In this document: piece after piece, positions 6,513-64,000 of the stretch
Layout of the letters: each line of letters begins with the position of its first letter
Numbering within the stretch: the first letter of the stretch is position 1
Assembly: GCA_020633995.1 (NCBI GenBank)
Contig: JACKCO010000004.1
Span: 90,928-154,927 of the forward strand
Direction of reading: 5' to 3'
Origin: Campylobacterota bacterium
Lineage (GTDB): Bacteria > Babelota > Babeliae > Babelales > RVW-14
Length of the DNA: 64,000 nt
Program-made: the position numbers and the translations under genes
Notes under the pieces: generated by a model
What the model saw: only the letters and a program-made list of their open reading frames with translations
Told to the model about the DNA's origin: nothing
The model's database searches: none

Positions 6513-6528
6513 TTTTTTAGGTACCTGT

Positions 6529-6558: not shown

Positions 6559-6615
6559 CGAATCAATTATCTATGACTTGTAAACTTGTTGTTAAATCAG
6601 CAACCTCTTAAGCAA

Positions 6616-9595: not shown

Positions 9596-9653
9596 AACTC
9601 TGAATCAGTGCGAAATGTCATCGCCGATCAGCGCCGGAGATGACATTGTCAAA

Positions 9654-20633: not shown

Positions 20634-20703
20634 GTGCGTTCCTCCTTTTTTTATACACTGACCAGTTGTAGCGTCAGTAGTTTTGAAATTTTTGGAGCGT
20701 GCC

Positions 20704-46324: not shown

Positions 46325-46428
46325 CGAACATAAAATAATGCTACATGGTAAAAAAATTAGATGTGGTATGGGCCTCATCTAGATTCAAAAAGTGAGAGAG
46401 GTACAAGTCTGTGAGAGGAAGGAGAGCA

Positions 46429-49400
46429 ATGAGGAACATTCTTCGCTTGTCAACATTTCTATCTGTGCTTTTTATTGTTGGGTTGGGTCAGTCGCTTTTT
46501 TCAAATATAACCTTTGGTAGTCGTGAGTCTGCCATTAAGGTTCAATCGGGTACTACATTTAATATTTCATCTGACAATTTGTGCGTTGACGGTACTATTG
46601 ATGCTGCTAACGATGCAAGTATTACAGGCAAGGAATTTGCTTTCAAAGATGGTCGTTTGCGCAATAAGAATGTTGAACTCTGCATGACCGCACTGTATGA
46701 TCCAACAGGAACAGACATCATAACGCTTCCCGGCAAGGCTCACTGTGACGTAACACCTGGCACCGTGATTCAGGCAATGGTAGTTGAAGGTGTTGATAAT
46801 GAGCTCGAGGGACAGCCTCGTTTTAGTGGGCCGATTACTCTTGCCAACGACAAAACAGAGCTTTCAATCGGTATTCAAAACAAACTGAATAATGATATTG
46901 AGCTTAATGGCGGTAAATTGATTTTAATTGATAACCTTGGCCTTGTTGATGATGTTAAAATCAATGGTCCTGGTATTGTTGACTTAAATCAGCGTCAACT
47001 TTCACTTGGTAGCGTATATACCACACCGTGGGGAGGAGAACTATTTTTTGATAATGCAACTGACCTCGTGCTAACGGGTAACACGGTACTGACAGGGACC
47101 TGGACATTTACAGGTAAAACCGTTCTTAATGGTAACGGCTCAGTGCTTGATATGTCCGGTGGAGGTAAAATTATTGTTAAAGCTGGTGCAACGTTGTGCA
47201 TGAACGACATTCACGTTACTGGTCTTGCAGATGCAGCTGGCAAAGGCATGATTGTATTTGAAGACAAAACAAGTCAGCTTCGTATAGCGAATGCATCGTT
47301 CAAACTTGATGGTGATATGAGCTGGACCACCGGCGGCATGTATGTTGTTGGGCCTGCAACATTGATGCTTGGCAACTATGACTGGACTTTTGATACCATG
47401 GCTTCACTCACCGTAGACGGTGTACCATTGTGGCTTGATACGCTGTGTGCTGATTGCGCAGTTGGGTCAGGTCAATTGTTTGTTAATCTCCCATTGTTTG
47501 CAAATGGCTTATGGCAGCCAGATAATGTTACTGCAAATATTGCGGCCGGATACCTTTCATTAATTGATTGCGCAACAATTAAAGATACCATCAGCAAAGA
47601 GGAAGCCCGCTTTGACCAAAGTCTGTGCGAGTTGCTTAGTGGTTGCTTGACTGACAGTCTTAAGCTCAACTGTGGGATCTGTCTTTGTTCACATGATACC
47701 ATTAGAATTTGTGGGGATGTTGAAATTGACGGTCAAGGTAATGAGCTTTGCTTCCTATGTGGTGCAGACAATGCACAGCTTATTGTTGAAGCAGGTAACA
47801 CGCTCACACTTAAAAATATTGCATTAAACAACATTGGCCAAAATACCCTTGATATTCGCGATGGTGCATTGCTTAACATCGACGAAGATGTTTCATTTTG
47901 CCTGTGCGAAAACGTTACCTTCTCACAAGGTGCTATTCAGGTACTTAACTCGGCGGCTGGTTCAAACATTTTCACTATTAAAGGTGACAAGTGCAAACGA
48001 GTTTTTGATGTACGCCCACTTGTGCCATTGCTTCCATCAGGCGTTGCAAACCAATTGCTTTTCTTGGGCACTAACACCCTCAAGCTTGAAAATGCTGGTA
48101 TTGGTGGCTTTGCATCAATAAGCCATATTAATGGTCCGGTCATTGTTGGTGCCATTGCGCTTTCATGCCAAGCATGCGCATTTATTGATGTCGATACAGG
48201 TATGAACTTCTTTATTGAAGATGGCCGCAACGAAATGATTTTTGAGCAAGATGGTTTGATTATGTCTGGTAACATTTCATTTGGTGACTTCCCAGATAAT
48301 GAATTGTCAATGCGCTTCTTGCTTATTGATCCAATTGATCCAAACAACCCTCGCCGTGTTGGCGTAAAACCGGGTAACCCATTTGTAGAGTTTACTGGTG
48401 ATCCTGGAGTATTTGTGTTCTCACTTGACGGTCGTGCTCATCTGATTTTTGAAGACTTTTCAGTAACGACACGCCTTAGCAATGCAAATGGTATTGTGGT
48501 TGATGACAACTCGCTGCTTACAGCCAAGAAACTTGAAATTCTTGATAATCCAATTAAACAAGCATCTGGATTGTTCAGATTTGAAGCGATTGAAATAGCT
48601 GGTGCAAAAATTGACCCATCATTTGTTCGTAGCCCAGTAAGTGTGAGAAGTGCACTCAGATCAGAAGGTATCAAGTTAACAGCGCTGCACATTGCTCGTC
48701 AAAAAGAAAAAGAGCAGTTCTTAGCTTCACAGGCAGCAGCGATTGCAGCACTTGAACAAAATGGTGGACGTCCAAATAAACCAAACAAGCCAAGCAATAA
48801 TAATAAACCGCAAAAACCAGCGACAGCTAAACCATTAGCACCACGTCAAGATAAGCCAGAAGCGCCGGGCTCTCGTCCAGAGCAGCCTCCACGTCCACCA
48901 CAAAAGCCTGATCGCCCAGAAGCTCCGGGTCGCCCAGATCGTCCAAGTTCATCAGACAATGACCGTCCATCACGACCTACTCAAGTTCAAAACGGTGGAG
49001 GTAGTTCATCAAATGGACGTCGCCGTCGTAGTGAGCGTAGCTTGAATGATACAACTCGCGCAATGGGAATCCCAAGTCAGTGGGCAAGGAAACGTGGAGA
49101 TCTTGAAGATCCAGAGGATTTCTTCGTACCAGAAATATTTGACGAAATTATTGAAGGTAACCAAGGTGGTACTCTTCTTCTTAATCCTGCTGAAAATGAA
49201 CCGCTTAAAGGTGCTCTTGATGTGAGAAATAATGCTCGTATTGAGGAAGCATATACAGATCCCGACCAACCGTTTCATGTAGTTTTGAGTAATGAGTCAG
49301 AGTTAGAGCAAAGTAATTCTGGAGATATTGATCTCGAGCCTACACAGATAATCAGTGTGATCGGTAAACAGAATGTGGTAGAAGTTTGCCGTGACTTCAG

Positions 49401-50559
49401 AGTTAACCAGGGTAACTTGCTTCTCTCTGGTGATGCGGAATGTATTATTCGCTTTGCAAATAACGGAACACATAAACCTCGCTTTATTTTCTCTGCAGGT
49501 ATGACACAAAACATAGGAGAGCAAGGCAAACTGATTTTTGAAGGTGATGGGTATGTTGTTTGCGAGGATGGTGTAACATTCCAGTTCCTTGGACAACCTG
49601 AGATTAACCCTGAAACAGGTAGAGCGCAAACCGAAGCTCGTCCATCTATAATCATCAGAGATGATGCTAAGTTTGTTCCAGCGGCAAAGAACGCCAAAAT
49701 TGCTATTCAAGGTGTGGGTAATGTTAGCGTTGAAGATCGTGCAATGATCAAATTTGATAAGGCAGGTAGCAAACTACGTTTGGGTTCTTCAACCGAAAAA
49801 GTTGATGACGTTGACTCAAACAAGCTCAATGACATTATGTTGAATTTGATTGATGGTGTTGTTTGGGTTGAATCAGATGATTCATCAAATCGAGCATGTA
49901 TTAGCCTTGAGTACGGAACATTTGATATCAATGGTACTGATGGTGGCCGCTTGTTAGTTGGTGACTATGGTACCTTTGCTATAAACGGAGACTGCAACGA
50001 AACGTTGAAACAGGGTCGCTTCAATTCATTTGATCTTGGTTGTGGTGGACAGTTGAATATCCGTCAAAATGGCTTGCTGCTTATTGGTGCCAGCAAAGAA
50101 GATCCTAAGCAAAAACTAACTGGCAAAACCTGCTATGACTTTGAGTTCAGTGGTCAAGTACAAGGTTCAGGTTTAGTTGGTTATCTGCCTGCTCCGTTCT
50201 CAGGTACTCCGGGTAAAGAACAAAGTATTCACAAGGGTGGTTTACTCGGTCGCCTCATTGGTCTTAACGAGATGTTTGTTCGTCGTATAAAAGAAGCAGA
50301 TAAACTTTCAAGTGAAAGTATTGTCAGAAACTTGGTACAAAGTCGTCCAGGCCTGTCTGTCTCAACGGTATTTGTTGATGAAGACGGTGCTGTAATGTTG
50401 AGAACAAAGAATGGTACAACTGTTCCACTTGTTAATCCTGCAAACAATAACCCAATTACATTGGTATCAGACAGTTCAACAACCGGACAAGCAACTGGAA
50501 CGGATGGCTTTAATGCGGTGACGATTGACATTAATGGCAATATTAAAGTTAATGACTAA
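46429..50559 (+). CDS. giant secreted protein P1 (two NGxG signature modules, Pro-rich linker, distinct C-terminal half)
   Basis: AGGAAGGAG SD. Signal peptide MRNILRLSTFLSVLFIVGLGQSLFS. N-terminal ~330 aa are homologous to P3 and P6 (LTGTWTFTGKTVLNGNGSVLDMSGGG...). Confidence 0.85.
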   Translation: MRNILRLSTFLSVLFIVGLGQSLFSNITFGSRESAIKVQSGTTFNISSDNLCVDGTIDAANDASITGKEFAFKDGRLRNKNVELCMTALYDPTGTDIITLPGKAHCDVTPGTVIQAMVVEGVDNELEGQPRFSGPITLANDKTELSIGIQNKLNNDIELNGGKLILIDNLGLVDDVKINGPGIVDLNQRQLSLGSVYTTPWGGELFFDNATDLVLTGNTVLTGTWTFTGKTVLNGNGSVLDMSGGGKIIVKAGATLCMNDIHVTGLADAAGKGMIVFEDKTSQLRIANASFKLDGDMSWTTGGMYVVGPATLMLGNYDWTFDTMASLTVDGVPLWLDTLCADCAVGSGQLFVNLPLFANGLWQPDNVTANIAAGYLSLIDCATIKDTISKEEARFDQSLCELLSGCLTDSLKLNCGICLCSHDTIRICGDVEIDGQGNELCFLCGADNAQLIVEAGNTLTLKNIALNNIGQNTLDIRDGALLNIDEDVSFCLCENVTFSQGAIQVLNSAAGSNIFTIKGDKCKRVFDVRPLVPLLPSGVANQLLFLGTNTLKLENAGIGGFASISHINGPVIVGAIALSCQACAFIDVDTGMNFFIEDGRNEMIFEQDGLIMSGNISFGDFPDNELSMRFLLIDPIDPNNPRRVGVKPGNPFVEFTGDPGVFVFSLDGRAHLIFEDFSVTTRLSNANGIVVDDNSLLTAKKLEILDNPIKQASGLFRFEAIEIAGAKIDPSFVRSPVSVRSALRSEGIKLTALHIARQKEKEQFLASQAAAIAALEQNGGRPNKPNKPSNNNKPQKPATAKPLAPRQDKPEAPGSRPEQPPRPPQKPDRPEAPGRPDRPSSSDNDRPSRPTQVQNGGGSSSNGRRRRSERSLNDTTRAMGIPSQWARKRGDLEDPEDFFVPEIFDEIIEGNQGGTLLLNPAENEPLKGALDVRNNARIEEAYTDPDQPFHVVLSNESELEQSNSGDIDLEPTQIISVIGKQNVVEVCRDFRVNQGNLLLSGDAECIIRFANNGTHKPRFIFSAGMTQNIGEQGKLIFEGDGYVVCEDGVTFQFLGQPEINPETGRAQTEARPSIIIRDDAKFVPAAKNAKIAIQGVGNVSVEDRAMIKFDKAGSKLRLGSSTEKVDDVDSNKLNDIMLNLIDGVVWVESDDSSNRACISLEYGTFDINGTDGGRLLVGDYGTFAINGDCNETLKQGRFNSFDLGCGGQLNIRQNGLLLIGASKEDPKQKLTGKTCYDFEFSGQVQGSGLVGYLPAPFSGTPGKEQSIHKGGLLGRLIGLNEMFVRRIKEADKLSSESIVRNLVQSRPGLSVSTVFVDEDGAVMLRTKNGTTVPLVNPANNNPITLVSDSSTTGQATGTDGFNAVTIDINGNIKVND

Positions 50560-50586: not shown

Positions 50587-52497
50587 ATGAACGCATTTAT
50601 TTTAGGAATGCTTGCCTCATTGCTCTTGTGTTGCAATGTGGAGCAGGCAAATGCCAACGCTCATGATGCCATGAGCGTTGCTAAAGAGCACGAAAAGGCT
50701 TTGGTAAAGCAGAAAAAAAATGCACAACGCGAAATGGAAAAAGCAAAAAAGACGACTGAAAAAGCACGCAAAAAGGAAATGAAGCGTGCGATGGAAGACA
50801 AGAAAAAACGCGTTGAAATGAAAAAGGCTGAGGACAAGAAAATTCGCAACAAGATGAAAAAGAAAGCCAAAAAAGATCGTGCTGCCAAAGAAGCTGATAA
50901 AAATCGTGTAGAGTACGAACGCCTTCGTGAAATGGATGGGCTTAAACAGGAAGAGAAAAAACAGCGTGCTCTGCAGGGACGTGATGAACGCGACATGCTT
51001 ATGAGCAATTGGGAAACTCATCGTGATAAAGTTGTCCTGCAAGAAAAAGAAAAAGGTAAGTATGCCTATCTTTATAAATCACCAGCATGGCCTATGCATG
51101 CACTCTTCTGGGAAAATAAAGCGTTTTTAAATGTGCAGTTTGACTACACCTACGCAACAGATGCTTATGGCTCTTGCCGTGGCGGTAGTGGGCATGATGT
51201 CTCAACACTTGAGTTTGGTCAGTGCCCAATCAAGCTCAAAGACATTTCTCTTGCCAGCAGGCTGCTTAAAGATGGGAAAGTTAATCCAGAGGCATGTAAC
51301 TTGGTTGTTGCAAACTTTCTGAAAGCGTTTGCGGATGAAACTTTGCGTTTTAATGGTAAGCAAGAGTCGATGAGTGTGTCGTTTGACTTTGCTCGTTACC
51401 TGCGTGGTCGTGATGTGGCCGTGGGTGTGCATGTGCCAATTGTGTACAAAAAGAATCGTCTTGAAATTGGTTTGCCAGTCAGTGGTCGTGAGCTTGAGTT
51501 TAATAGTTTCTTGGGATTGGGCAATGATCCGACAGCAACCTTAAATAACATTCCAATAGTTACTATACAGTCTCAATCAGGCCAGGCGATAGTTGTTCCT
51601 GCGAATACTGCTCTCAAACAACTTGTTAATCCAAATGTCTTGCAAGCTTTTAACGATTACATGATCGAAAAAATCTTGAAAGGCAAAGGCATTGAACACG
51701 TTGGTGGTTCATCTGGTGGTATTGGAGACATTGAGCTGTTTGGTAACATCCAACTCAGACCATGGTGGGCCGATAAAGTGATTTTTGGCTTACGTGTAGC
51801 AGTACCGACAGGCAAAGAAGCCGATCTGCACAGACTCTGGTCACCAGAGCTTGGCTGCGGTGGATTTACCACGGTTGGTGCCTACATGTCGGCACTGGTT
51901 AGCTATAAAAAGTTCCTGAATCCACATGTATTGATTGAAGGACGCTTTAGCAACTCAGCAAACGTTAAACGCCGTGTACCTCGCCGTGTTGTAACGCCTG
52001 ACAGTGCTGTCGCAACCGAAGATCTTGGCCATGACTTGATTTCTCTTGGTGGTTTTGTCAAATACAAAACAGATCCTCTTAGTGATGCTAACAAGTTTGA
52101 TGAATTTGATGCGACAGTTAATGGCTTTGGTGACAAGATTAACAAAATTCGCATGACCAAGGGTGCAGAATTTGAGTTCCGCCTCGGTAACATGATGGAA
52201 GCGTTCTTGCTTCGTCGTGGCTTTATGGACGTGTACTACAACTTTAGAGCCAAAGCTCAAGATGAAGTACGTCGTTGCCTTGAGCAAGTTGACACAGCTT
52301 GCTGTCAGCGCGTTGATGAACTTAACCTGTGCTATGTTTGGGATAACACACAGCGTCTTGAGCATAAGCTTGGTTTTGAGTATGCCTATCAGTTTGATCT
52401 GGACGCACGTCTGCGTGTCGGCTTAGAGTATACCTTTGCTGGTAAGAGCGTTCCAAAACTAGTGTTATTCACAACAGCGTTTAACTACTCATTTTAA
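50587..52497 (+). CDS. predicted outer-membrane beta-barrel protein P2 with Lys/Glu-rich N-terminal region
   Basis: AAGGAGAG SD. Signal peptide MNAFILGMLASLLLCCNVEQANA. ~130 aa of K/E/R-rich sequence. C-terminal ~450 aa have alternating polarity and end ...TTAFNYSF (terminal Phe). Confidence 0.7.
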   Translation: MNAFILGMLASLLLCCNVEQANANAHDAMSVAKEHEKALVKQKKNAQREMEKAKKTTEKARKKEMKRAMEDKKKRVEMKKAEDKKIRNKMKKKAKKDRAAKEADKNRVEYERLREMDGLKQEEKKQRALQGRDERDMLMSNWETHRDKVVLQEKEKGKYAYLYKSPAWPMHALFWENKAFLNVQFDYTYATDAYGSCRGGSGHDVSTLEFGQCPIKLKDISLASRLLKDGKVNPEACNLVVANFLKAFADETLRFNGKQESMSVSFDFARYLRGRDVAVGVHVPIVYKKNRLEIGLPVSGRELEFNSFLGLGNDPTATLNNIPIVTIQSQSGQAIVVPANTALKQLVNPNVLQAFNDYMIEKILKGKGIEHVGGSSGGIGDIELFGNIQLRPWWADKVIFGLRVAVPTGKEADLHRLWSPELGCGGFTTVGAYMSALVSYKKFLNPHVLIEGRFSNSANVKRRVPRRVVTPDSAVATEDLGHDLISLGGFVKYKTDPLSDANKFDEFDATVNGFGDKINKIRMTKGAEFEFRLGNMMEAFLLRRGFMDVYYNFRAKAQDEVRRCLEQVDTACCQRVDELNLCYVWDNTQRLEHKLGFEYAYQFDLDARLRVGLEYTFAGKSVPKLVLFTTAFNYSF

Positions 52498-52568: not shown

Positions 52569-54605
52569 ATGTTGAAAAAGCGTTGTTTCTTCTTGGCTTT
52601 ATGTTGTGTAGCCGCAGTGGGTTCTTTGCATGCTCGAACGTTGCACAGAGGTCGCGAGTCTGGCTATAACGTTGAGTCAACTTCAACCATGCGCATTGAA
52701 AATCGATTACGTGTTAATAGCGGAAGGCTAAGAGTTGGGGAGAAGGCAACGCTTGAAGGTGCAACAGGTGCGATTGTTGAATTTACCAATGGACGTTTTG
52801 TTGAAGAAAATCAAGTGGATGTTGAGCTGACGGGTACGCTTGATATTAATGCTAATGAGATTACTGTTGATGGGTCTAACTTCAACCCAGCTTCGGGACG
52901 GCCTCGTCAACGCATTCGCTTGAGTGGAAGTGCAAAGCTTGAGGGCCTTTCTGGGCGGTTTGATGAGTCTGTTAGTTTAGCAGATCCTGCCTCAGAACTT
53001 GATCTTAACCTTGCAACACCGATCAACACCAACATTAATCTTGCTGGAGGTAAAATTAATCTAACGGGCGATGCGCGCCTTTCTGATGGTCGTATGCCTC
53101 GAGGCGATGGTACCATTGATGCGCGTGGTAACAGACTGTCTACCGGGGGTCGAAATTTGACTCTAGGAGATAATCTTACGTTGAGAAATATGTCTGATTG
53201 GGACATTAACAGCAAGATTACCGTGACGGGTGAATTGACTTTTACCGGGAATGCAAAAATTAACGGTAATGGTAATGTGCTTGATCTTTCTCAGGGGGGA
53301 ACGATTAGAATCAGGGCTACAACAACGCTTGCTATGTGTAACATTACGCTTAAAGGCCTTGGTCTTGGAAAACTTATTTTTGAAGATCCAACATCACAAC
53401 TCTGTTTGTCTGACGCTCATGTGATGTTGAATCGTGACGTGACCTTTACAACCGGCGGTTTCTATATTGAAGGTCCAACAAAAATTATCACGAAAGATAA
53501 AATTTTGCGCTTTGATAGTGCAAGTTCTCTGACGGTTGATTGTCTAACGCTTGAATATGATACCGTTTCATTCACCGATAAACAAAATATTCGACCGTTT
53601 AATGCAGCGGCTGATCTAAATCAGTTGCATCTAACATTGCTTAATAATGCAACCATTCGCAGGGTAGCTTCTACCTCGGGCCCTGTAGTCATTGTTAATA
53701 ACTTTATTTTAGAGGGACTGCTTGAATTGCACCCAGATTTCAAGATTTTCTTCTGTGAAACGGCAACGCTTGACGGGGCAACGCATAATGTGTTCTTCTC
53801 GTGTGCTAAAGAGCCGCTTATTGTTGTTGATCCGGGCAAGATAGCGACGTTTGAAAATATTGCTTTCAAAGCATTTGCTCCACACCATATTAATGCGGGT
53901 GCTAAATTTATCTTTGCAGATAACACTAAAATTGAACTTGGCCAAAATAGTGAACTTGTTACGACATGGACCTTTACCGGGGCATGTGTGCTGAATGGTC
54001 GCGGTTTCTGCCTTGACATGAGTAGCACTGCTGCTGCGCTTGTGTTGCAGCAAGATAGAACTAACTTGCTGCTCGAAGATATCATTATTAAAGGTCTTTC
54101 TGCCAATAAAATTCGTTGTCTTGATAATAGCAGTAGTGTTTCCTTTAAAAATGTTACGTGGATTCAAGATGATTCAACAACATTCTCATTGGGTACGTTT
54201 GCAGTTATTAAGGATTTGGAACTTGTAGGTTCTTCAACGTTTGAATATTCAACGGTTGTTGGAAGTACCATTTTCGCACATGGAAAATTGAAACTCGATT
54301 GTGGTATGTCATTTAGCTATGCACCAAAACGTGCACATCGTGACTTAATTTACATGGAAAACAGTAGCGCTGTGCTTGAAATGAAAGGTGCGACGCTTGC
54401 ATCGACGGTGACTGGTCTACGCTTGACACGAGGAACCCTCATGCTTGATCACAAAAACAATACGATCAATGATGGTGCTGCGAGTGCTTCACAGTCAATA
54501 GCTTTTGGTAATGGGTCAGCAAGTGATGATTTGACTGTTAAAGTAATGCCGGGTGCAAATATTAATGTGCTTACTGGACGCCTTGTTTATGATAATACGA
54601 TTTAA
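52569..54605 (+). CDS. secreted modular protein P3 (module A + module B + shared C-terminal motif)
   Basis: Signal peptide MLKKRCFFLALCCVAAVGSLHA. N-half is homologous to P1/P6 (VTGELTFTGNAKINGNGNVLDLSQGG...). C-half is homologous to the P5 C-terminus (FSYAPKRAHRDLIYM...LRLTRGTLMLD...IAFGNG). Confidence 0.85.
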   Translation: MLKKRCFFLALCCVAAVGSLHARTLHRGRESGYNVESTSTMRIENRLRVNSGRLRVGEKATLEGATGAIVEFTNGRFVEENQVDVELTGTLDINANEITVDGSNFNPASGRPRQRIRLSGSAKLEGLSGRFDESVSLADPASELDLNLATPINTNINLAGGKINLTGDARLSDGRMPRGDGTIDARGNRLSTGGRNLTLGDNLTLRNMSDWDINSKITVTGELTFTGNAKINGNGNVLDLSQGGTIRIRATTTLAMCNITLKGLGLGKLIFEDPTSQLCLSDAHVMLNRDVTFTTGGFYIEGPTKIITKDKILRFDSASSLTVDCLTLEYDTVSFTDKQNIRPFNAAADLNQLHLTLLNNATIRRVASTSGPVVIVNNFILEGLLELHPDFKIFFCETATLDGATHNVFFSCAKEPLIVVDPGKIATFENIAFKAFAPHHINAGAKFIFADNTKIELGQNSELVTTWTFTGACVLNGRGFCLDMSSTAAALVLQQDRTNLLLEDIIIKGLSANKIRCLDNSSSVSFKNVTWIQDDSTTFSLGTFAVIKDLELVGSSTFEYSTVVGSTIFAHGKLKLDCGMSFSYAPKRAHRDLIYMENSSAVLEMKGATLASTVTGLRLTRGTLMLDHKNNTINDGAASASQSIAFGNGSASDDLTVKVMPGANINVLTGRLVYDNTI

Positions 54606-54658
54606 AGAGAGAGAAAAATTAGTTAACGTTTATTTTGCTAGGTAAAAAAGGAGAGAGA

Positions 54659-55678
54659 ATGAGACGTTTTGGCTGCTCAAATAGTCTAAAAAAATGCTTA
54701 ATCATGGTACTTATTTTGTTGCAAGGCTCAGCGCTATTTTGTGCTGCAAGCAAAAAAAGAGTATGCCGTGATGGAGAGACCATTGAGGGTTTTGTTCCTT
54801 TGAATGGGGTTTCTTTGCCATCAAAATCAGATGTCTATTTTAATGTTCCTCTTCCAGTACAAGGAATTGTAGAGTTTGGTGCCGATTGTACTATGCATCT
54901 CATGAGTGACCTACATACTGCATCACACATCAATTTTGCTATTGGTCAGAATTGCTCGGACTGTGCTTATATAAATGGGCAAGGATATACATTATTTCTT
55001 GGTGGTGATATAAACGTCCCAGCCTCACGTTCATTGCACATAGCTGGTGATTTAACGATTGATGGTAACGGATATACTATTTGTTTTGAGGACTTACTCT
55101 CGGAAATTTATGTTCATGAGCATTGCACACTTACTTTACGCAACCTTATTTTAAGGGGTTGGGATGGCAATTGCCAGCTTGCAGGACAAGGCCGTGTAGT
55201 ATTGCAGGATTGTGAAATTGACTTGTCACCTGAAATGGTAGCTGAATATGAGGGTGATGGAGAAGTTGAAGTACGTAGCTTGGTGTCAGTACAAGGTGGC
55301 GGCAAGTTAGTCTTTGGTGGTAGAAGTTCTTTAAAAATAGATTCATTTTCTACTTTGTGGATGGATTCGGATACAACACTTCATTGGAAGAATCAAACTC
55401 GAACTGGGCTTGTAATGGTTGATGAAACATCCCGTATTTTCTTAAACGGTGGAAATATTCATGCAGATGCTAAAGGAGAGAACAAAGGGCTTCAACTGAC
55501 TAAAGGAACATTGCTTTTAGATAATAGATGTATGATTCAAAATGACGGTAATACATCTGCTACAAGAAGTTTTCAACTTGGTGATGGAAGAAATACAGCT
55601 AATGATGTTGATGTAAAAGTTCTTGCTGGGGCGCTTGTTGAGGTTGATGGCTACATGGACTTTAATCCGGCTCGGTAG
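54659..55678 (+). CDS. secreted short paralogue P4 (one signature module + shared C-terminal motif)
   Basis: AGGAGAG SD before the ATG at 54659. Signal peptide ...CLIMVLILLQGSALFCAAS. TIDGNGYTICF...LTLRNLILRGW; C-terminus LQLTKGTLLLDNR...FQLGDG...DVDVKVLAGA. Confidence 0.8.
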   Translation: MRRFGCSNSLKKCLIMVLILLQGSALFCAASKKRVCRDGETIEGFVPLNGVSLPSKSDVYFNVPLPVQGIVEFGADCTMHLMSDLHTASHINFAIGQNCSDCAYINGQGYTLFLGGDINVPASRSLHIAGDLTIDGNGYTICFEDLLSEIYVHEHCTLTLRNLILRGWDGNCQLAGQGRVVLQDCEIDLSPEMVAEYEGDGEVEVRSLVSVQGGGKLVFGGRSSLKIDSFSTLWMDSDTTLHWKNQTRTGLVMVDETSRIFLNGGNIHADAKGENKGLQLTKGTLLLDNRCMIQNDGNTSATRSFQLGDGRNTANDVDVKVLAGALVEVDGYMDFNPAR

Positions 55679-55719: not shown

Positions 55720-58700
55720 ATGAGATGTTACAAGAAGATTGTGTGCTTAATGCTTTTGGCAGCCAGTGGCATTGAGCATCATCTTGCGGGGGCAAAGCTA
55801 GATTTTGCAAGTCGTAGCTCGTCCATATTGCTAGGTAGTAATGGAAAGCAGTCTGTTTTGCGTGTTGGCGATCAGAATAAAGTACGTGGTTGGGAGCAAG
55901 AATCAATTGTACGAGCATCTGATCGAGGCCTTACTATTAGCAGAAGTCCTGGAGGGGCTCAAGTTTACGATCAAAATAGTGCACCAGCCTCAGTGAATGA
56001 TGAGTGGCACGTGCTAAGAGACTGGCAAATGGATCGTGCCTTTACTACAACCGATCCAGAACTTGTTTTACAAAACAGTGCTGCAATAGCTGCGCTTGCG
56101 CAGTGTTGCAAAAATAATAGTAATGCAATTGTAAAAAATGACGCGGATATTGCAAGTAACGCTTCTGACATCATTACCAATGCGGTTAATATCGCATCAA
56201 ATGCAACAAGTATTGCAAGTAACGCAATGGACATATCTGATAATCTTAAAGCAATTAGAAACAACAGTAATGCGCTTCTTGCATGTTGCAGAAATAATAG
56301 TAATGCAATTTTGGCTATTAATGCTGATCTGTCACAGGGTGTAGAGGACAACAGTAATGCCATTATTAAGCTTGAACAAGATGTAACCAACAATAGCAAT
56401 GCTTTGATTGCAAAGTGTGACGAAATTGAAGCGAATAGCAATGCGATTTTGGTTAACGTTCAAAATATCACGAATAACAGTAATGTTATCGTAGTTAATG
56501 TTCAAAATATAACAAATAATAGCAACACTATTGTTAAAAATTCTCAAAATATAATAAATAACAGTAATGCTATTGTTGTCAAATGTGAAGAGATCGAAGC
56601 AAATAGCAACGCGATTATTAAGCATGATCAAGATATCACAAATAATAGCAATGCCATTATTGCGGTAGTCGAGTGTTGCGAAGACAATAGCGAAGCGATT
56701 ATTAAGCTTGCACAAGATGTTGAAAATAATAGCAACGCGATCTTGAAGAATGTTCAGGATATCACCAACAACAGTAACACGCTGTTGGCATGTTGCCGTG
56801 ATAATAGCAATGCGATCATCAAGTTGACGAATGATGTCGAAAATAACAGCAACGCGATCTTGAAGAATGTTCAGGATATCACCAACAACAGTAACACACT
56901 GTTGGCATGCTGTCGTGATAATAGCAATGCGATTATCAAGTTGACGGATGATGTTGAAAATAACAGCAACGCGATCTTGAAGAATGTTCAGGATATCACC
57001 AATAACAGTAATACCTTGTTGGCATGTTGCCGCGATAACAGCAATGCGATTATCAAGTTGACGGATGATGTTGAGAACAACAGCAACGCGATCTTGAAGA
57101 ATGTTCAGGATATCACCAACAACAGCAACACATTGTTGGCATGCTGCCGTGATAACAGCAACGCGATTATCAAGTTGACACAAGATGTTGAAAACAACAG
57201 CAATGCGATATTGAAGAACGTTGAGGATATTAAAAATAACAGTAACACGCTGTTGGCATGCTGCCGTGATAACAGCAATGCGATTATCAAGTTGACACAA
57301 GATGTTGAAAACAACAGCAATGCGATATTGAAGAACGTTGAGGATATTAAAAATAACAGTAACACCTTGTTGGCTTGCTGCCGTGACAACAGCAATGCGA
57401 TTATCAAGCTGACACAAGATGTTGAAAATAACAGCAACGCGATCTTGAAGAATGTTCAAGATATCACCAACAACAGTAACACTTTGTTGGCATGCTGCCG
57501 TGATAACAGTAATGCGATTATCAAGTTGACACAGGATGTTGAAAACAACAGCAATGCGATCTTGAAGAATGTTCAAGATATCACCAACAACAGTAACACT
57601 TTGTTGGCATGCTGCCGTGATAACAGCAACGCAATTATCAAGCTGACGAATGATGTTGAAAACAACAGCAACGCGATCTTGAAGAACGTTCAGGATATCA
57701 CCAACAACAGCAACACATTGTTGGCATGCTGCCGTGATAACAGCAACGCAATTATTAAACATGACCAAGATATCACCAACAATAGTAATGCGATCATTGC
57801 ATTGGTAGAGTGTTGTGAAGATAATAGCGAAGCGATTCTCAAGCTTGTTGAAGATGTTAAGAATAACAGTAACACCTTGTTGGCTTGCTGCCGAGATAAT
57901 AGCAACGCGATTATCAAACATGATCAAGACATAACAAACAACAGTAATGCGATTGTTAAGAACGTTCAGGATATCACCAACAACAGTAATACCTTGTTGG
58001 CTTGTTGCCGCGATAACAGTAATGCAATTGTTAAGTTGACGCAAGATGTTGAAAATAACAGCAACGCGATCCTGAAGAAGTGTCAAGATATCGAAAATAA
58101 CAGCAATGCAATATTGAAGAATGTTGAAGATATTAGACACAACAGTGATGCAATTGTAAGTATTATGATTAACAATGAGTTGATCATACATAACAGTAAC
58201 GCAATTGTTGTACTTGCCGAGTGTTGTGAGGACAACAGCAATGCAATCATTAAACATGAGCAAGACATTAAGAACAACAGTAACACCTTGTTGGCCTGCT
58301 GCCGTAACAACAGTAATGCGATTATTAAGCACGAACAGGATATAAAAAACAACAGTAATGCAATTATTGCAGTGGTTGAGTGTTGCAAAGACAATAGTGA
58401 GGCGATCCTGAAATTGGTACAAGATGTTACAAACAACAGTAACACGTTGTTGGCCTGCTGCCGCGATAACAGCAATGCGATTATCAAATTGACGCAAGAT
58501 GTTGAAAACAACAGCAACGCGATTCTGAAAAACGTTGAAGATATCAAGAATAACAGCAATACGCTGTTGGCATGTTGCCGAGACAATAGCAATGCGATCA
58601 TCAGACACGATAAACAGCTAAATACCATTGATCATGGCCCAGAAAAAGTGTTTATCAAGCACAACACGCATCAAATCAACTTTGATCTGCATATTTCCTG

Positions 58701-59655
58701 TACACACTGCATGGTGATTGAACCAGAATGTCCAAAATCACCAAGTGATTTTGCAGCTGACGGGCAAAAGGCAGTCACTCGAAACGGTTACGCTTGTAAC
58801 ACGACTGTTACTATTAATGGTAATGGCCAGGCAATTAACCTTGCAAGCAAATGTGATGACATTATTCAGGTAGCAGATGGTGTACAAGTTATTTTTGAAA
58901 ACGTTGTGTTCAGACACTACCATGACCGTGTTTTTCAGCTTGGCGAAGGATCTGAAGTTGTCTTTGGTAACTGCACACGTCTTGAACTTGATGAAATGCA
59001 GAGCATGGAGATGGATTGGAAGTTTGACGGAGATACACAAATCCGTGGTTATGACAATATCTTGATGCTGGGTGAGTACAACATAAGAGTATTGCCAAGT
59101 GCAGAGCTGACGATGCACAACTTGTGGTTGTCAGGCATGCAGGATAACAATGTACGTTGCGAACATGACGATTCAAGCATTATTTACAAAGATTGCGACT
59201 TGTGGTTATCAGCAGACTACAGCTTTACAAAAGGCTCAATGCTGTTTGTCCAAGATGTAGTTTTACGCGGAACACATTGGTTTAACTACATGACAGACTT
59301 GACATCAACCATTAGCGGATGCTCAAGCTTGACCTTTGATAAGGGCGTTGTGTTTAACTATGAACCGCCTATTGCGAACAGAGACCTGATTGCAATGCAA
59401 GACATTACAGCAGTCTTAAAATGGGATGGCTGTGATATTTACTCAACACCAACTGGCTGGCGCCTAACCGTGGGTACGTTGTGTGTTGATCATATCAACA
59501 GACTCTTTGGTAGCGGTTCAAGCTTGTCACAAGCCATAGCGTTTGGTAATTGTGTCAATCAAGTAGTACTTGACGATCTTAATGTACAAGTGTTGCCTGG
59601 TGGATCAATTGATCTTCAATCAGGTGTGCTTGACTACGCAAACTTAGATACATAA
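55720..59655 (+). CDS. giant repeat protein P5: signal peptide, ~840 aa of NNSNAI/LLACCRD 39-aa repeats (predicted coiled-coil fibre), C-terminal module B + shared C-terminal motif
   Basis: AAGGAGAG SD. Signal peptide MRCYKKIVCLMLLAASGIEHHLAGA. The non-repeat C-terminal ~340 aa are homologous to the P3 C-half, which fixes strand and frame. Confidence 0.9.
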   Translation: MRCYKKIVCLMLLAASGIEHHLAGAKLDFASRSSSILLGSNGKQSVLRVGDQNKVRGWEQESIVRASDRGLTISRSPGGAQVYDQNSAPASVNDEWHVLRDWQMDRAFTTTDPELVLQNSAAIAALAQCCKNNSNAIVKNDADIASNASDIITNAVNIASNATSIASNAMDISDNLKAIRNNSNALLACCRNNSNAILAINADLSQGVEDNSNAIIKLEQDVTNNSNALIAKCDEIEANSNAILVNVQNITNNSNVIVVNVQNITNNSNTIVKNSQNIINNSNAIVVKCEEIEANSNAIIKHDQDITNNSNAIIAVVECCEDNSEAIIKLAQDVENNSNAILKNVQDITNNSNTLLACCRDNSNAIIKLTNDVENNSNAILKNVQDITNNSNTLLACCRDNSNAIIKLTDDVENNSNAILKNVQDITNNSNTLLACCRDNSNAIIKLTDDVENNSNAILKNVQDITNNSNTLLACCRDNSNAIIKLTQDVENNSNAILKNVEDIKNNSNTLLACCRDNSNAIIKLTQDVENNSNAILKNVEDIKNNSNTLLACCRDNSNAIIKLTQDVENNSNAILKNVQDITNNSNTLLACCRDNSNAIIKLTQDVENNSNAILKNVQDITNNSNTLLACCRDNSNAIIKLTNDVENNSNAILKNVQDITNNSNTLLACCRDNSNAIIKHDQDITNNSNAIIALVECCEDNSEAILKLVEDVKNNSNTLLACCRDNSNAIIKHDQDITNNSNAIVKNVQDITNNSNTLLACCRDNSNAIVKLTQDVENNSNAILKKCQDIENNSNAILKNVEDIRHNSDAIVSIMINNELIIHNSNAIVVLAECCEDNSNAIIKHEQDIKNNSNTLLACCRNNSNAIIKHEQDIKNNSNAIIAVVECCKDNSEAILKLVQDVTNNSNTLLACCRDNSNAIIKLTQDVENNSNAILKNVEDIKNNSNTLLACCRDNSNAIIRHDKQLNTIDHGPEKVFIKHNTHQINFDLHISCTHCMVIEPECPKSPSDFAADGQKAVTRNGYACNTTVTINGNGQAINLASKCDDIIQVADGVQVIFENVVFRHYHDRVFQLGEGSEVVFGNCTRLELDEMQSMEMDWKFDGDTQIRGYDNILMLGEYNIRVLPSAELTMHNLWLSGMQDNNVRCEHDDSSIIYKDCDLWLSADYSFTKGSMLFVQDVVLRGTHWFNYMTDLTSTISGCSSLTFDKGVVFNYEPPIANRDLIAMQDITAVLKWDGCDIYSTPTGWRLTVGTLCVDHINRLFGSGSSLSQAIAFGNCVNQVVLDDLNVQVLPGGSIDLQSGVLDYANLDT
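56074..58608 (+). repeat. in-frame degenerate 13/39-aa repeat region of P5
   Basis: NNSNA[IL] recurs about every 13 codons. 15 LLACCR and 4 ECC[EK]D Cys-Cys doublets counted in the translation. Confidence 0.95.
56716..57768 (+). repeat. 9 consecutive near-identical 117-bp (39-aa) tandem units
   Basis: Unit DVENNSNAILKNV[QE]DI[TK]NNSNTLLACCRDNSNAIIKLT[NDQ]. The period was checked from nucleotide offsets (56716, 56833, 56950 ...). Confidence 0.95.
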
Positions 59656-59773: not shown

Positions 59774-62700
59774 ATGGGTGTGACTATACCTGCAAAACGT
59801 GCAATAAAAGTTTTATTGGCGATAGCTTGTACACTGTCAAGTAGTCTCTTTGCAGCAGTTGAATTTGGGAGCTTAGCGTCTGCTATTAATGTTAGACGCA
59901 GCGCACAGCTGCAGTCTTTTGCGAATCCATTTTTGGTGCGAGAGGGGAGTGTCAATGCACTTGAGAGTGGCGTAGTTTCAGGTCCCAAACTTATGTTTGA
60001 TGGAGGTATTTTCGCCGATAATAACAGTAGTGCAGAATTTACTGGTGATCTGGCGTTCACTCAAAATAATGTTATTGAAGTTTTTGACTCAGCATCAAAT
60101 GTAACTATTGTTGATCAAACAACTATTGATAGAAACATTATTTTAAATGACGGGACGTTGCGTCTTGATAATAAATTAAGTCTTGCCGATGGTGTTACTA
60201 TTGGTGCTTCTGGTCGTGTGCAGCTTAATGGTCATAGGCTAGAATTTGGAGGAAGAGATTTAGGTTTGACGAGCTCAATCGTCTGGGAAAATGCAGATGA
60301 TTTGGTCATGCATAGCAATATTGCTTTGACGGGGTTGTGGACGTTTACCGGCCCAGCCCACATTATCGGAAATGGCAATTGCCTTGACCTGACCAGTGGT
60401 GGGACGCTGTGGATACGCAGTAATACCGATGTATGGTTGAGCGATATTAAAATTCGCGGCTTGGGAACGGGGTTTATTGTTTTTGAAAATAAAACGTCTC
60501 GTTTGTATCTTTCGCAGGTTGAAGTAGAACTTGATTCATCGTTTACGGTAACAACCGGTGGTATTTACGCAAAAGGTCCTGCTAATATCGTAACAAAAAA
60601 TCACTTCTTAGCGTTTGATCAGAGTGGATCGTTAACCGTTGATGGGATACGCCTTACTTATGACACGTTGACGTTTGATGACCGTTCAAATATAGTGCCG
60701 CTCGACGCTGGGCAAGATCCAGGTGGGGTCAACTTAGCACTTGTAAATAATGGCGTTATCACAAACAACAATGTGGCACAGGCAAGTCAGCTTGCTATTC
60801 AAAACAGTAATGCAATTCTTGTTAAATGCCAAGAGATTGAAAATAACAGTAATGCAATTCTCGCGATTAGCTCTGGCGGGGTCCAGCTTGCAATAGAAAA
60901 CAGTAATGCGATTGTTGCAAAGTGCCAGGACATAGAAAATAACAGCAATGCAATTCTGAAGAACGTTCAGAATATAACGAATAACAGCAACACGATTTTG
61001 GTTAATGTTCAAAATATAACTAACAATAGCAATACGTTGATCAAGAAATGTCAGGACATTGAAAACAACAGCAATGCAATTTTAAAGAATGTTCAAGATA
61101 TAACGAATAACAGTAACACCTTGTTGGCGTGTTGCCGAGACAACAGTAACGCAATTATCAAATTAACGAATGATGTTGAAAATAACAGCAATGCGATTTT
61201 GAAGAATGTTCAGGACATAACAAATAACAGCAACACGCTTCTTGCATGCTGCCGAGACAATAGCAACGCGATTATCAAGCATGACCAAGATATAACAAAT
61301 AATAGTAATGCGATTATTGCACTTGATGTGGCAAGTGGTGGTGCTGCCGAACTTGCAGAGCAGAATAGCAATGCCATCCTTGCAAAATGTCTTGAAATAG
61401 AGGCCAACAGCAACGCAATCTTGAAGAACGTTCAAGACATAACAAACAATAGTAATACGTTGTTAGCCTGTTGCCGAGATAACAGCAACGCAATTATCAA
61501 GTTGACGCAGGATGTTGAAAACAACAGCAACGCGATTTTGAAGAATGTTCAGGACATAACAAATAACAGCAACACGCTTCTTGCATGCTGTCGTGACAAC
61601 AGTAATGCTATTCTTGCCCTGAGTGCTGGTCTTACTGATGGGGTGACGAATAATAGTAATGCGATTATTAAGCTTGTTCAGGATGTGACGAACAATAGTA
61701 ATACGCTGTTGGCGTGTTGCCGAGACAACAGTAACGCAATTATCAAATTAACGAATGATGTTGAAAATAACAGCAATGCGATTTTGAAGAATGTTCAGGA
61801 CATAACGAACAATAGCAATACGTTGCTTGCCTGCTGCCGAGACAACAGCAACGCAATTATCAAACATGACCAAGATATAACAAACAACAGTAATGCTATT
61901 GTTGCACTTGATCAAGGCCTTTCTCAGGCAATCGAAAACAACAGTAATGCGATTATTAAGCTTGTTCAGGATGTGACGAACAACAGTAACACGCTGTTGG
62001 CATGTTGCCGTGATAATAGCAATGCAATTATCAAATTAACGAATGATGTTGAAAATAACAGCAATGCGATTTTGAAGAATGTTCAGGACATAACGAACAA
62101 TAGCAATACGTTGCTTGCCTGCTGCCGAGACAACAGCAACGCAATTATCAAATTAACGAATGATGTTGAAAACAACAGCAATGCGATTTTGAAGAATGTT
62201 CAAGACATAACGAACAATAGCAATGCATTGCTTGCTTGTTGCCGCAACAATAGCAATGCGATTATCAAGATTGTTCAAGATGTTAAAAACAACAGCAATG
62301 GAATATTGGCAAATGAAGCTGACATTATGAAGAACGCAGCAGACATTTTGACCAACGCCGTCAACATCGCAACGAATGCAACAAACATAGCTGCGAATGC
62401 CGTTGATATAACCAATAATGCTATGGATATTGCTTCCAATGTTGACAACATCAGGCACAATAGCGATGCAATTATTGGTAAATGTCAGGATATTGAAAAT
62501 AATAGCAATGCAATATTGGCAATAGGTGATTGTTGCATAAACAACAGTCAGCGTATTACTAATAACAGCAATGCAATTATCAAAAAATGTGAAGAGATTA
62601 AACAGAATAGTAACGCAATATTAGCCAATGAGGCTGATATTATGAAGAATTCAGCCGATATTTTGACCAACGCAGTCAATATTGCAACGAATGCAACAAA

Positions 62701-64000
62701 CATAGCTGCAAATGCTGTTGATATAACCAATAATGCTATGGATATTGCTTCCAACGCCGACAACATCAGGCACAATAGCGATGCAATTATTGGTAAATGT
62801 CAGGATATTGAGAATAATAGCAACGCGATATTGGCGATAGGTGATTGCTGTGAACAAAATAGTGGCGCGATTATTAAACTGACGCAAGATGTTGAAAATA
62901 ATAGCAATGCAATACTGGCAAAGTGCTTAGAAATTGAAGCTAACAGTAACGCAATCTTGAAAAACGTCCAGGATATTACTAATAATAGCAATACCTTGCT
63001 AGCCTGCTGTCGTGATAATAGCAACGCAATTATCAAACATGATCAGGATATAACAAATAACAGTAATGCAATTGTTGTGCTTGCCGAGTGCTGTGAAGAC
63101 AACAGTGAGGCAATTCTCAAGTTGACTCAAGACGTTGCCAACAACAGTAACACGCTGTTGGCTTGCTGTCGTGATAATAGTAATGCAATTATCAAGCATG
63201 ATCAGGATATAACAAACAATAGTAATGCGATTGTTGTGCTTGCCGAATGTTGTGAAGACAATAGTGAGGCAATCCTCAAGTTAGTCCAAGATGTCACCAA
63301 CAACAGCAACACTTTGTTGGCATGCTGCCGTGATAATAGCAATGCGATTATCAAGCTAACGGATGATGTTGAAAATAACAGCAACGCGATTTTGAAGAAC
63401 GTGCAGGATATCACTAACAACAGCAACACCTTGTTGGCATGCTGTCGTGATAACAGCAATGCAATTATCAAGCTGACGAATGATGTTGAAAACAACAGCA
63501 ACGCGATCTTGAAGAACGTTCAGGATATTACTAACAACAGCAACACCTTGTTGGCATGCTGCCGTGATAACAGCAACGCGATTATCAAATTGACACAAGA
63601 TGTTGAAAATAACAGCAATGCGATCTTGAAGAACGTGCAGGATATTACTAACAACAGCAACACCTTGTTGGCATGCTGCCGTGATAACAGTAACGCGATT
63701 ATCAAGTTGACAGAAGATGTTGAGAACAACAGCAACGCGATCTTGAAGAACGTTGAGGACATTAAGAACAACAGTAATACCTTGTTGGCATGTTGCCGCG
63801 ATAACAGCAATGCGATTATCAAGTTGACACAAGATGTTGAAAACAACAGTAATGCGATCTTGAAGAACGTTGAGGACATTAAGAACAACAGTAACACTTT
63901 GTTGGCATGCTGCCGTGATAACAGTAATGCGATTATCAAGTTGACGCAGGATGTTGAAAACAACAGCAATGCGATCTTGAAGAACGTTGAGGACATTAAG
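59774..64000 (+). CDS. giant repeat protein P6 (3' end outside the window): signal peptide, N-terminal module A, then more than 1,070 aa of the same repeat family
   Basis: Not in the ORF track because there is no stop before the window edge. GAGGAAGG SD before the ATG at 59774. 4,227 nt (1,409 codons) are open to nt 64000. Signal peptide MGVTIPAKRAIKVLLAIACTLSSSLFAA. ALTGLWTFTGPAHIIGNGNCLDLTSGG is homologous to P1/P3. Confidence 0.88.
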   Translation, partial: MGVTIPAKRAIKVLLAIACTLSSSLFAAVEFGSLASAINVRRSAQLQSFANPFLVREGSVNALESGVVSGPKLMFDGGIFADNNSSAEFTGDLAFTQNNVIEVFDSASNVTIVDQTTIDRNIILNDGTLRLDNKLSLADGVTIGASGRVQLNGHRLEFGGRDLGLTSSIVWENADDLVMHSNIALTGLWTFTGPAHIIGNGNCLDLTSGGTLWIRSNTDVWLSDIKIRGLGTGFIVFENKTSRLYLSQVEVELDSSFTVTTGGIYAKGPANIVTKNHFLAFDQSGSLTVDGIRLTYDTLTFDDRSNIVPLDAGQDPGGVNLALVNNGVITNNNVAQASQLAIQNSNAILVKCQEIENNSNAILAISSGGVQLAIENSNAIVAKCQDIENNSNAILKNVQNITNNSNTILVNVQNITNNSNTLIKKCQDIENNSNAILKNVQDITNNSNTLLACCRDNSNAIIKLTNDVENNSNAILKNVQDITNNSNTLLACCRDNSNAIIKHDQDITNNSNAIIALDVASGGAAELAEQNSNAILAKCLEIEANSNAILKNVQDITNNSNTLLACCRDNSNAIIKLTQDVENNSNAILKNVQDITNNSNTLLACCRDNSNAILALSAGLTDGVTNNSNAIIKLVQDVTNNSNTLLACCRDNSNAIIKLTNDVENNSNAILKNVQDITNNSNTLLACCRDNSNAIIKHDQDITNNSNAIVALDQGLSQAIENNSNAIIKLVQDVTNNSNTLLACCRDNSNAIIKLTNDVENNSNAILKNVQDITNNSNTLLACCRDNSNAIIKLTNDVENNSNAILKNVQDITNNSNALLACCRNNSNAIIKIVQDVKNNSNGILANEADIMKNAADILTNAVNIATNATNIAANAVDITNNAMDIASNVDNIRHNSDAIIGKCQDIENNSNAILAIGDCCINNSQRITNNSNAIIKKCEEIKQNSNAILANEADIMKNSADILTNAVNIATNATNIAANAVDITNNAMDIASNADNIRHNSDAIIGKCQDIENNSNAILAIGDCCEQNSGAIIKLTQDVENNSNAILAKCLEIEANSNAILKNVQDITNNSNTLLACCRDNSNAIIKHDQDITNNSNAIVVLAECCEDNSEAILKLTQDVANNSNTLLACCRDNSNAIIKHDQDITNNSNAIVVLAECCEDNSEAILKLVQDVTNNSNTLLACCRDNSNAIIKLTDDVENNSNAILKNVQDITNNSNTLLACCRDNSNAIIKLTNDVENNSNAILKNVQDITNNSNTLLACCRDNSNAIIKLTQDVENNSNAILKNVQDITNNSNTLLACCRDNSNAIIKLTEDVENNSNAILKNVEDIKNNSNTLLACCRDNSNAIIKLTQDVENNSNAILKNVEDIKNNSNTLLACCRDNSNAIIKLTQDVENNSNAILKNVEDIK
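60789..64000 (+). repeat. in-frame NNSNAI/LLACCRD repeat region of P6, continuing past the window
   Basis: Same 39-aa unit as P5, interspersed with variant units and heptad (xDIxxNA) stretches. The last ~700 nt are regular 117-bp units. Confidence 0.95.
62309..62851 (+). repeat. 315-bp-offset internal duplication inside P6 (two 228-bp copies: 62309-62536 and 62624-62851)
   Basis: Both copies encode ANEADIMKN[AS]ADILTNAVNIATNATNIAANAVDITNNAMDIASN[VA]DNIRHNSDAIIGKCQDIENNSNAILAIGDCC. Confidence 0.9.

Follow-up and report, generated by a model that had tools for sequence, protein, structure and literature searches.

The subject of this study is an array of asparagine-rich repeats in one long open reading frame (ORF) of a 64,000-nucleotide stretch of DNA, called the window below, that covers positions 90,928 to 154,927 of contig JACKCO010000004.1 (assembly GCA_020633995.1, labelled Campylobacterota bacterium and placed by GTDB in the Babelota). 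We favor, with moderate confidence, the view that this array forms the stalk of its protein, a parallel and probably trimeric coiled coil of about 125 nm with a polar core in which asparagine occupies heptad position d (N@d). The evidence that carries this view is the regularity of the repeats, their helical periodicity, the coiled-coil register that they allow and the fixed place that cysteine doublets take in this register.

The ORF (55720-59655, + strand) encodes a secreted-type protein of 1311 residues, and positions 56074-58608 are in frame with it and correspond to residues 119-963, or 845 residues. The protein and the features within its repeats are laid out as follows, where a hendecad is an 11-residue segment.

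55720-55794, + strand: predicted Sec signal peptide, residues 1-25, read from the sequence as MRCYKKIVCLMLLAASGIEHHLAGA followed by KLDF at an inferred cleavage site, without a lipobox.
55795-56073, + strand: N-terminal region of about 93 residues (residues 26-118), which bears the family "N-cap" motif.
56074-58608, + strand: repeat region, residues 119-963, the proposed coiled-coil stalk of about 125 nm, made of 42 units of 14 residues, 15 units of 11 residues and 5 irregular units.
56143-56250, + strand: pure heptad stretch, I-x-x-N-A-x-x, likened to the N@d coiled coil of SadA (PDB matches, E-values 0.033 to 5).
56728-57780, + strand: nine consecutive canonical 39-residue units, residues 337-687, each with Cys-Cys at hendecad positions d and e.
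56104-58578, + strand: span of the 20 Cys-Cys doublets, from the first (residues 129-130) to the last (residues 952-953).
58609-59655, + strand: junction QLNTIDHGP and then the C-terminal domain of about 340 residues, stop codon counted, a beta-helix according to AlphaFold2.

Every Asn-Ser-Asn (NSN) motif in the array is a clean unit boundary, which gives one type of unit with 14 residues (NSNAILKNVQDITN) and one with 11 (NSNTLLACCRD). The usual order of 14-14-11 adds up to 39 residues and occurs in ten canonical copies, nine of them in a row at residues 337-687, and Tandem Repeats Finder reports a 117-nucleotide period with 9.1 copies and 91% matches. A previous sequence-only reading of this DNA had spelled out the 39-residue unit, which reads exactly as given there, and had pointed to an adjacent run of pure heptads near position 56143, which is indeed present (ADIASNA SDIITNA VNIASNA TSIASNA MDISDNL; residues 142-176, nucleotides 56143-56247). 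It had also counted about 19 regularly spaced Cys-Cys pairs; the regular spacing stands, with nine consecutive spacings of exactly 39 residues, and the count has to be corrected to 20 doublets. The composition of the region is extreme, with 22% Asn, no Pro, a single Gly and no Phe, Trp or Tyr in 845 residues.

The repeat peptide is under purifying selection and the + frame is its coding frame. When the nine regular units are compared to each other, third codon positions hold 62 of the 82 nucleotide differences, and the changed codons are synonymous in 56 cases versus 17 non-synonymous; these counts show the peptide to be kept by selection. The Cys codons vary between TGT and TGC, which is synonymous, and both residues of the doublet stay Cys. 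ORFs of up to 758 residues also span the repeats on the minus strand (55971-58628) and are by-products of the repeat composition.

A helical reading of the repeats requires a sustained periodicity, and the sequence-only reading had proposed one of 39 residues per 11 turns, built from four heptads and one hendecad. The regular units bear this out, since their 753 residues make 213 turns with a mean of 3.535 residues per turn. A Fourier transform of the hydrophobicity of residues 119-963 has its dominant peak at the same 3.535 residues, inside the expected range of 3.5-3.6, with a power of 64.7, far above the 200 shuffles of the repeat region (mean power 4.4, maximum 10.3). The C-terminal domain was used as a negative control and has no peak above 6.5, while the stalk of a true trimeric autotransporter (P0061), also used as a control, peaks at 7.07 and 3.47. 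Peaks of 3.515 and 7.07 are seen in the irregular N-terminal part of the repeats, and most of the homologue repeat regions peak between 3.57 and 3.68. Given that this is a tandem-repeat sequence, the power must land on harmonics of 39, 14 and 11, and the informative part is thus which harmonic wins: it is 39/11 and not a beta-like value of about 2.

The spacing of the motifs agrees with this. In the family as a whole, nearly every gap from one motif to the next is 11 residues (209 cases) or 14 residues (156 cases), and most of the others are 7, 18, 22 or 28, all of them lengths that a coiled coil can accommodate. Even the irregular stretch at residues 133-182 keeps the heptad phase unbroken, since its 49 residues are exactly seven heptads. 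The register was assigned by setting the Asn of the NSN motif to position d, or to h in the hendecad. In this register position a is 95% Ile, Leu or Val, and positions d and h are 62% Asn (71 layers), 14% Leu, 13% Cys and 4% His, which is the layering of hydrophobic a and Asn d that had been read from the sequence before. Ser directly follows the core Asn in 57 of 57 regular units, so that the aliphatic a, Asn d and Ser or Thr e of the N@d motif are all found in the repeat region.

This design is the one seen in the stalks of trimeric autotransporters such as SadA and UspA1, which share the aliphatic a, the Asn d, the Ser or Thr e and the long runs of polar d positions, and which are likewise fibrous and exported, in bacteria that have an outer membrane. 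The likeness to SadA extends to short motifs (NNSNAI here and TNTNSI there; IASNATS here and IATNTTN there). In trimeric autotransporters about 45% of the stalk d positions are polar, and at the extreme 37 of 40 heptads are N@d (Hartmann et al. 2026, PMC13580157). When the pure heptad stretch was searched against the PDB (177,635 distinct sequences), all four matches were to trimeric-autotransporter stalks, namely SadA (2WPQ, E = 0.033; 2WPR, E = 0.12) and UspA1 (E = 0.35 and 5), and three of the four matches to the whole protein were stalk fragments of Omp100, SadA and EibD. The resemblance suggested by the sequence-only reading is therefore only partly secured: these stalks are the sole PDB matches of the heptad stretch, but the matches are weak (E-values 0.03 to 5). 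Since the E-values are not significant we read them as a likeness of design and not as homology, and the relation to these stalks is probably one of analogy. There are also clear differences from the trimeric autotransporters. The protein of the window lacks a YadA beta-barrel anchor and head or neck domains, its conserved globular domain is C-terminal and a single-chain beta-helix by prediction, and its stalk has a regular 39-residue super-repeat with a hendecad, periodic Cys-Cys doublets and a hydrophobic position b.

When the Cys-Cys doublets of the window proteins and of the homologues are counted together, there are 68. In 67 of these the two Cys precede the next core Asn by 4 and 3 residues, and 55 of the 68 occupy positions 7 and 8 of the 11-residue unit, which are hendecad d and e. 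A doublet is present in 59 of the homologue units and a lone Cys in 7, and doublets occur in 24 of the 47 homologues. From the position count and the excess of doublets over single Cys we conclude that Cys occurs in pairs and that these pairs keep to one core register in the family. In a threefold bundle a pair at d and e would bring six thiols into each layer, all of which could pair as three d-e' bonds between chains, while a single Cys per chain could not pair completely. A similar arrangement has been engineered: the substitution of the NCCG-gp41 type is Cys-Cys-Gly and forms three inter-chain bonds. The chemistry is feasible, since engineered gp41 trimers with a Cys-Cys substitution (NCCG-gp41 and N35CCG-N13) are disulfide-linked (PMC2978731). 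Like these constructs, the stalk has vicinal Cys in a coiled coil, which we propose to be a parallel trimer as theirs is. They differ in that the constructs are artificial with a single staple, while the protein of the window is natural and has 20 doublets set 39 residues apart.

The number and direction of the chains bear on a second helical possibility, namely that the repeats associate as a dimer or as a bundle of four or more, or that one chain folds into an intramolecular antiparallel hairpin of about 60 nm and so returns its N-cap to the C-terminal domain. The wide hydrophobic face (g-a-e-b) with a conserved Ile or Leu at b does suggest an extra interface, one AlphaFold2 monomer model has two long helices split by a loop, and in a related locus with tandem modules (L008) the N-cap motif comes directly after the C-terminal domain, so that the two could pack. 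We nonetheless consider an arrangement other than the parallel trimer to be decidedly unlikely. The middle of the array, around residue 540, where a hairpin would have to turn, has no helix breaker or irregularity and its units are perfect copies, and a threefold ring would be what needs a doublet rather than a single Cys. Moreover, in the stalks of trimeric autotransporters a beta-branched a together with Asn at d marks a parallel trimer (PMC13580157).

Several results count against a polar-core trimeric coiled coil and have to be set beside the evidence above. In the family as a whole the invariant residues are the Ser at e and the Asn at f, position b is always Ile, Leu or Val, and the supposed core position varies in the homologues (N/T/D/S/L). 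The 11-residue units of the homologues read N-S-N-A-L-L-Y-[L/G/C]-[I/C/T]-K-N, with five hydrophobic positions in a row and frequent Gly. The Asn content of 22% implies a low intrinsic helix propensity, and PDB searches with the whole protein, with a three-unit profile and with a homologue gave no match below an E-value of 0.03. The structure predictions are mostly poor as well. When AlphaFold2 was run on residues 119-453 as a single sequence, four of the five models had a mean predicted local distance difference test (pLDDT) of 30-38, and when it was run on residues 808-1311 with an alignment of 37 homologues the repeats had a pLDDT of about 33 and no secondary structure apart from the last unit, which was helical with the helix broken at Asn-Ser.

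Looking at what these points imply, a plain trimer accounts for neither the invariant f nor the hydrophobic b. The invariant Ser at e can be taken as the counterpart of the Thr in the N(d)T(e) motif that trimeric autotransporters have. For the Asn at f and for the hydrophobic b another explanation is required, and lateral packing, a larger bundle, glycosylation sequons or a different fold are candidates. As to the sequons, the repeat region has 42 N-X-S/T sites, and the N-x-S-N motif itself creates N-X-S; in the 11-residue units of the homologues an Asn stands before the variable position in 79%. N-glycosylation of the repeats, as in some adhesins, is a possibility suggested by these motifs.

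The invariant f Asn, the hydrophobic b and the odd homologue units also keep alive, as a rival, a non-canonical fold, which we judge unlikely. The 11- and 14-residue NSN units would then belong to a solenoid of short helices, each N-capped by Ser-Asn, or else to a beta-solenoid or beta-roll that is narrow and has ladders of Asn and Cys. The 3.5-residue signal would in that case reflect a harmonic of the 14-residue and 11-residue periods and nothing more. The Fourier analysis alone is not decisive here, since 3.5 is 14/4. Numbered from the core position as 0, it is Ser1 and Asn2 that are invariant while position 0 varies, and both the homologue units with a hydrophobic run plus Gly and the helix break at Asn-Ser in the alignment-based model point the same way. 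The N-S-x-A-I motif with its 14-residue period recalls the NSVAIG beta-roll of YadA heads. A left-handed beta-roll of the YadA-head type was considered and rejected, there being no Hep_Hag match, one Gly in 845 residues, and 11- and 7-residue units interspersed with the others. For the wider class of such folds, tight beta-rolls need Gly at their turns and this region has 1 Gly and no Pro, and neither Hep_Hag nor any other Pfam family matched. No AlphaFold2 model has strands in the repeats, and one has a helix of 166 residues that runs through many NSN motifs. The free mixing of 11- and 14-residue units with a pure 7-residue stretch is easier to reconcile with a helix than with a solenoid whose cross-section is fixed, and the T-N-T-N-S-I of SadA lies in a continuous coiled coil that has been crystallized.

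The helical model just mentioned is the best of the single-sequence models and gives the coiled-coil stalk partial direct support. It is one of the five single-sequence models of residues 119-453 and is about 80% helix (residues 2-167 and 233-334, pLDDT 65-79), and its two helices are 166 and 102 residues long, the longer being unbroken. None of the five models has beta strands in the repeats. The helix proposed by the sequence-only reading is thus found in one model but not in the other four, nor in the alignment-based run, and of the two outcomes that were to be looked for in such predictions, a beta-solenoid does not appear while most models have the low confidence that could mean disorder. 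The failure of the alignment-based run on the repeats is probably due to their being misaligned and to the protein being a likely obligate oligomer. In addition, polar-core coiled coils are scored as disordered by predictors, and AlphaFold gives them low confidence unless adaptors or ions are added (PMC13580157), so the weak signal on the repeats can be partly attributed to this.

The same low pLDDT values of about 30-38 and the 22% Asn would also be expected from an intrinsically disordered, Asn-rich, low-complexity spacer. We find this very unlikely given the sharp amphipathic periodicity far above the shuffles, the 95% hydrophobic a positions, the lack of Pro and the strong purifying selection (56 synonymous versus 17 non-synonymous changes). 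The mis-scoring of polar-core coiled coils as disordered also weakens the argument from pLDDT (PMC13580157).

Taking the repeats as a polar-core coiled coil, a fairly detailed picture of the stalk can be proposed. The protein would be exported by the Sec pathway, and in its core aliphatic a layers of Ile, Val or Leu would alternate with the 71 Asn layers at d and h. Triads of Asn in the stalks of trimeric autotransporter adhesins coordinate anions, and the layers in this stalk may bind anions as well. With two heptad pairs and a hendecad in every 39 residues, the 3.54 residues per turn would give a nearly straight bundle with a weak left-handed supercoil. The earlier estimate of a rod well over 100 nm holds, since the residue count gives about 125 nm for a continuous helix. 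The hendecad d and e positions in the core would hold Cys-Cys, with six thiols per layer in a threefold bundle, and a ring of three inter-chain d-e' disulfides could staple the rod covalently every 5.8 nm or so. Such a stalk would probably serve as a rigid spacer on the cell surface that holds beta-helix domains off the cell, or off an attachment point, for contact with a protist host. A periplasmic tether like Lpp was also considered and set aside, since 125 nm would be far beyond the width of the periplasm. A parallel in overall form is offered by surface stalks with hendecads such as tetrabrachion, also a very long surface rod in which 11-residue units lessen the supercoiling; a difference is that 62% of the d and h positions of the stalk described here are Asn.

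In its most specific form this picture is a tentative one, which we regard as rather unlikely. It would be a fiber with about 70 ion-binding Asn layers and 20 six-Cys rings, either disulfides or metal sites, every 5.8 nm, stapled and possibly redox-switchable, that serves as the host-contact rod of an obligate intracellular bacterium; or else the repeats would be an undescribed fibrous NSN fold.

The C-terminal domain of about 340 residues is predicted with much higher confidence than the repeats, as an all-beta solenoid with AlphaFold2 pLDDT above 90 that ends in ...VLDYANLDT. Foldseek matched the domain to right-handed beta-helices alone (TibA, PfbA, SRRP, polygalacturonases and tailspikes), though no match reached an E-value of 0.001 in PDB or BFVD. 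A predicted right-handed beta-solenoid at the C-terminus is something the protein shares with tailspikes and fibers and with beta-helix adhesins (P22, CBA120, TibA, PfbA, SRRP), and tailspikes commonly have a helical segment that is trimeric ahead of their beta-helices. Unlike tailspikes, the protein lies in a non-phage context, has a stalk that is many times longer and has no match to them that reaches an E-value of 0.001. No catalytic or binding site was identified in the domain.

These properties, together with the searches for known families, leave little room for the idea that the protein is a genuine trimeric autotransporter adhesin or the tail fiber of a prophage. The N@d-like stalk, a weak match (E = 5e-4) to the real trimeric autotransporter P0061 and the weakly tailspike-like C-terminal beta-helix are all that speak for these, and we consider them largely refuted and scarcely tenable. 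YadA_anchor (PF03895) is not found at a Pfam E-value of 0.1 or below, while the positive control P0061 scores 3.7e-09, and the Hep_Hag, HIM and YadA_stalk modules are not found with Pfam or NCBIfam. The C-terminus is predicted to be a beta-solenoid and not a barrel, so the sequence-only reading was right in stating that a YadA-type barrel anchor is missing. Against a tail fiber, the neighbors are chromosomal with no phage genes, and the gene cluster around the stalk is syntenic in bacterial metagenome genomes. Finally, apart from P0061, the other 29 repeat homologues and all the homologues of the domain come from Dependentiae or TM6 genomes or from unclassified metagenome genomes.

Judging by these homologues, the stalk protein belongs to an undescribed family restricted to Dependentiae, with the predicted beta-helix C-terminal domain as its common module. 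The protein is therefore no orphan, and both its family and the same-register Cys-Cys across that family had been overlooked before. Homologues of the C-terminal domain number 37 proteins at 36 loci, with 35-47% identity over 97-100% of the domain. Those with a name are from Candidatus Dependentiae, Babeliales or TM6, and the others are labelled "bacterium" or "uncultured Pseudomonadota". The repeat region has 30 homologues, most of them without a name; the organism labels, where present, are Dependentiae, Babeliales or "bacterium", and the sole clear outsider is P0061. In front of the domain is a junction pattern, Q-x-x-T-I-D-H-G-P, in which T-I-D-H-G-P is invariant in the window protein, P0001 and P0002, while a wider five-sequence alignment (A1) lists no junction residue as invariant. 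The N-cap motif (xLxFxSxSSxIxL...V.GW.E.SI) is common to the window protein, P0002, P0004, P0006 and P0016.

The way these parts are combined is seen at locus L008 (contig CAVXAT010000001.1), where an ORF at 2-11011 encodes more than 3670 residues and is built from several modules in tandem. Every module has the N-cap motif, the C-terminal domain and, as a middle part that varies, either WD40-like repeats with "WSPDGRYLA" or NSN repeats, and such tandem modules indicate that the domain is a reusable module and not a terminal signal alone. Searches with Pfam and NCBIfam gave nothing above curated cut-offs for the protein and its four neighbors, and Pfam gave no repeat family for eight homologues. 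One candidate, fvmYukDl_N, scored 50.9 bits for the whole protein and was rejected as repeat bias, as no single stretch passes. In the literature on adhesins, fibers and coiled coils in Dependentiae, we found no account of the family.

The stalk gene does not stand alone in the window, and its cluster includes the following genes.

46411-50559, + strand: secreted beta-helix-like protein of 1382 residues with a Pro-rich linker, the first gene of the cluster.
50587-52497, + strand: putative outer-membrane protein of 636 residues with the C-terminus ...AFNYSF, assigned from this C-terminal motif alone.
52569-55678, + strand: two stalk-less paralogues of 678 and 347 residues with the same C-terminal domain.
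59774-64000, + strand: downstream stalk paralogue, continuing past the end of the window, with a signal peptide, a beta-helix-like N-terminal domain and repeats.

The downstream paralogue has more than 1000 residues of the same repeats with 21 Cys-Cys doublets. Its repeats include a few short breaks that contain Gly, with spacings of 18, 21 and 28 that still fit a coiled-coil periodicity, and a block of about 105 residues that holds a pure-heptad run is duplicated. The order of the 1382-residue protein, the 636-residue protein and the paralogues recurs at five related loci of Dependentiae type (L002, L009, L010, L011 and L012), and no member of the cluster has a Pfam or NCBIfam annotation. The 636-residue protein could be an anchor or translocator for the stalk proteins. 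Its AFNYSF terminus resembles an outer-membrane beta-signal, its signal peptide is followed by a Lys/Glu-rich segment of about 100 residues, and its family has around 300 representatives at 50% clustering, none of them annotated. One of the deposited homologues (P0024) is identical to the 347-residue ORF (54635-55678) from its Met9 and is recorded as H6679_03800 [Epsilonproteobacteria bacterium]. This label is probably wrong, since the homologues are found in metagenome genomes of Dependentiae, Babeliales and TM6, and the uncultured, intracellular-type bacterium of the window most likely belongs to the Dependentiae (TM6). Several of the related metagenome genomes are labelled "uncultured Pseudomonadota".

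The rest of the window is ordinary chromosome, with genes for G6PD, CysRS, PBP, BamD, YidC, RecR, CTP synthase, LpxC, EF-G, EF-Tu, SecY, RpoA and LDH. The neighborhood of the stalk gene adjoins a ribosomal operon and has no phage genes, and the genes for BamD/YfiO and LpxC indicate that this genome has an outer membrane. An Rfam scan of the window gave no match. Two other genes are worth recording. An ankyrin-repeat protein at 4248-5141 (- strand) fits an intracellular lifestyle in association with protists, and a protein of 1016 residues at 20683-23733 is an unusual fusion of an endonuclease/exonuclease/phosphatase domain, a DnaJ J-domain and a macro domain, which could be an effector directed at the host.

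Polar-core coiled coils pose a problem for work on protein structure at present, and most of what is on record about them comes from trimeric autotransporters. If our reading is true, the stalk would add a natural and independent case from a different phylum, and one of unusual length and regularity. The strictly placed Cys-Cys doublet could in addition show that a trimeric rod can be covalently stapled in nature. For the Dependentiae, whose host-attachment machinery is to our knowledge essentially undescribed, the analysis points to a family of surface or secreted proteins that has no annotation and to the conserved gene cluster that goes with it, and the stalk may prove to be part of how these bacteria make contact with their protist hosts.

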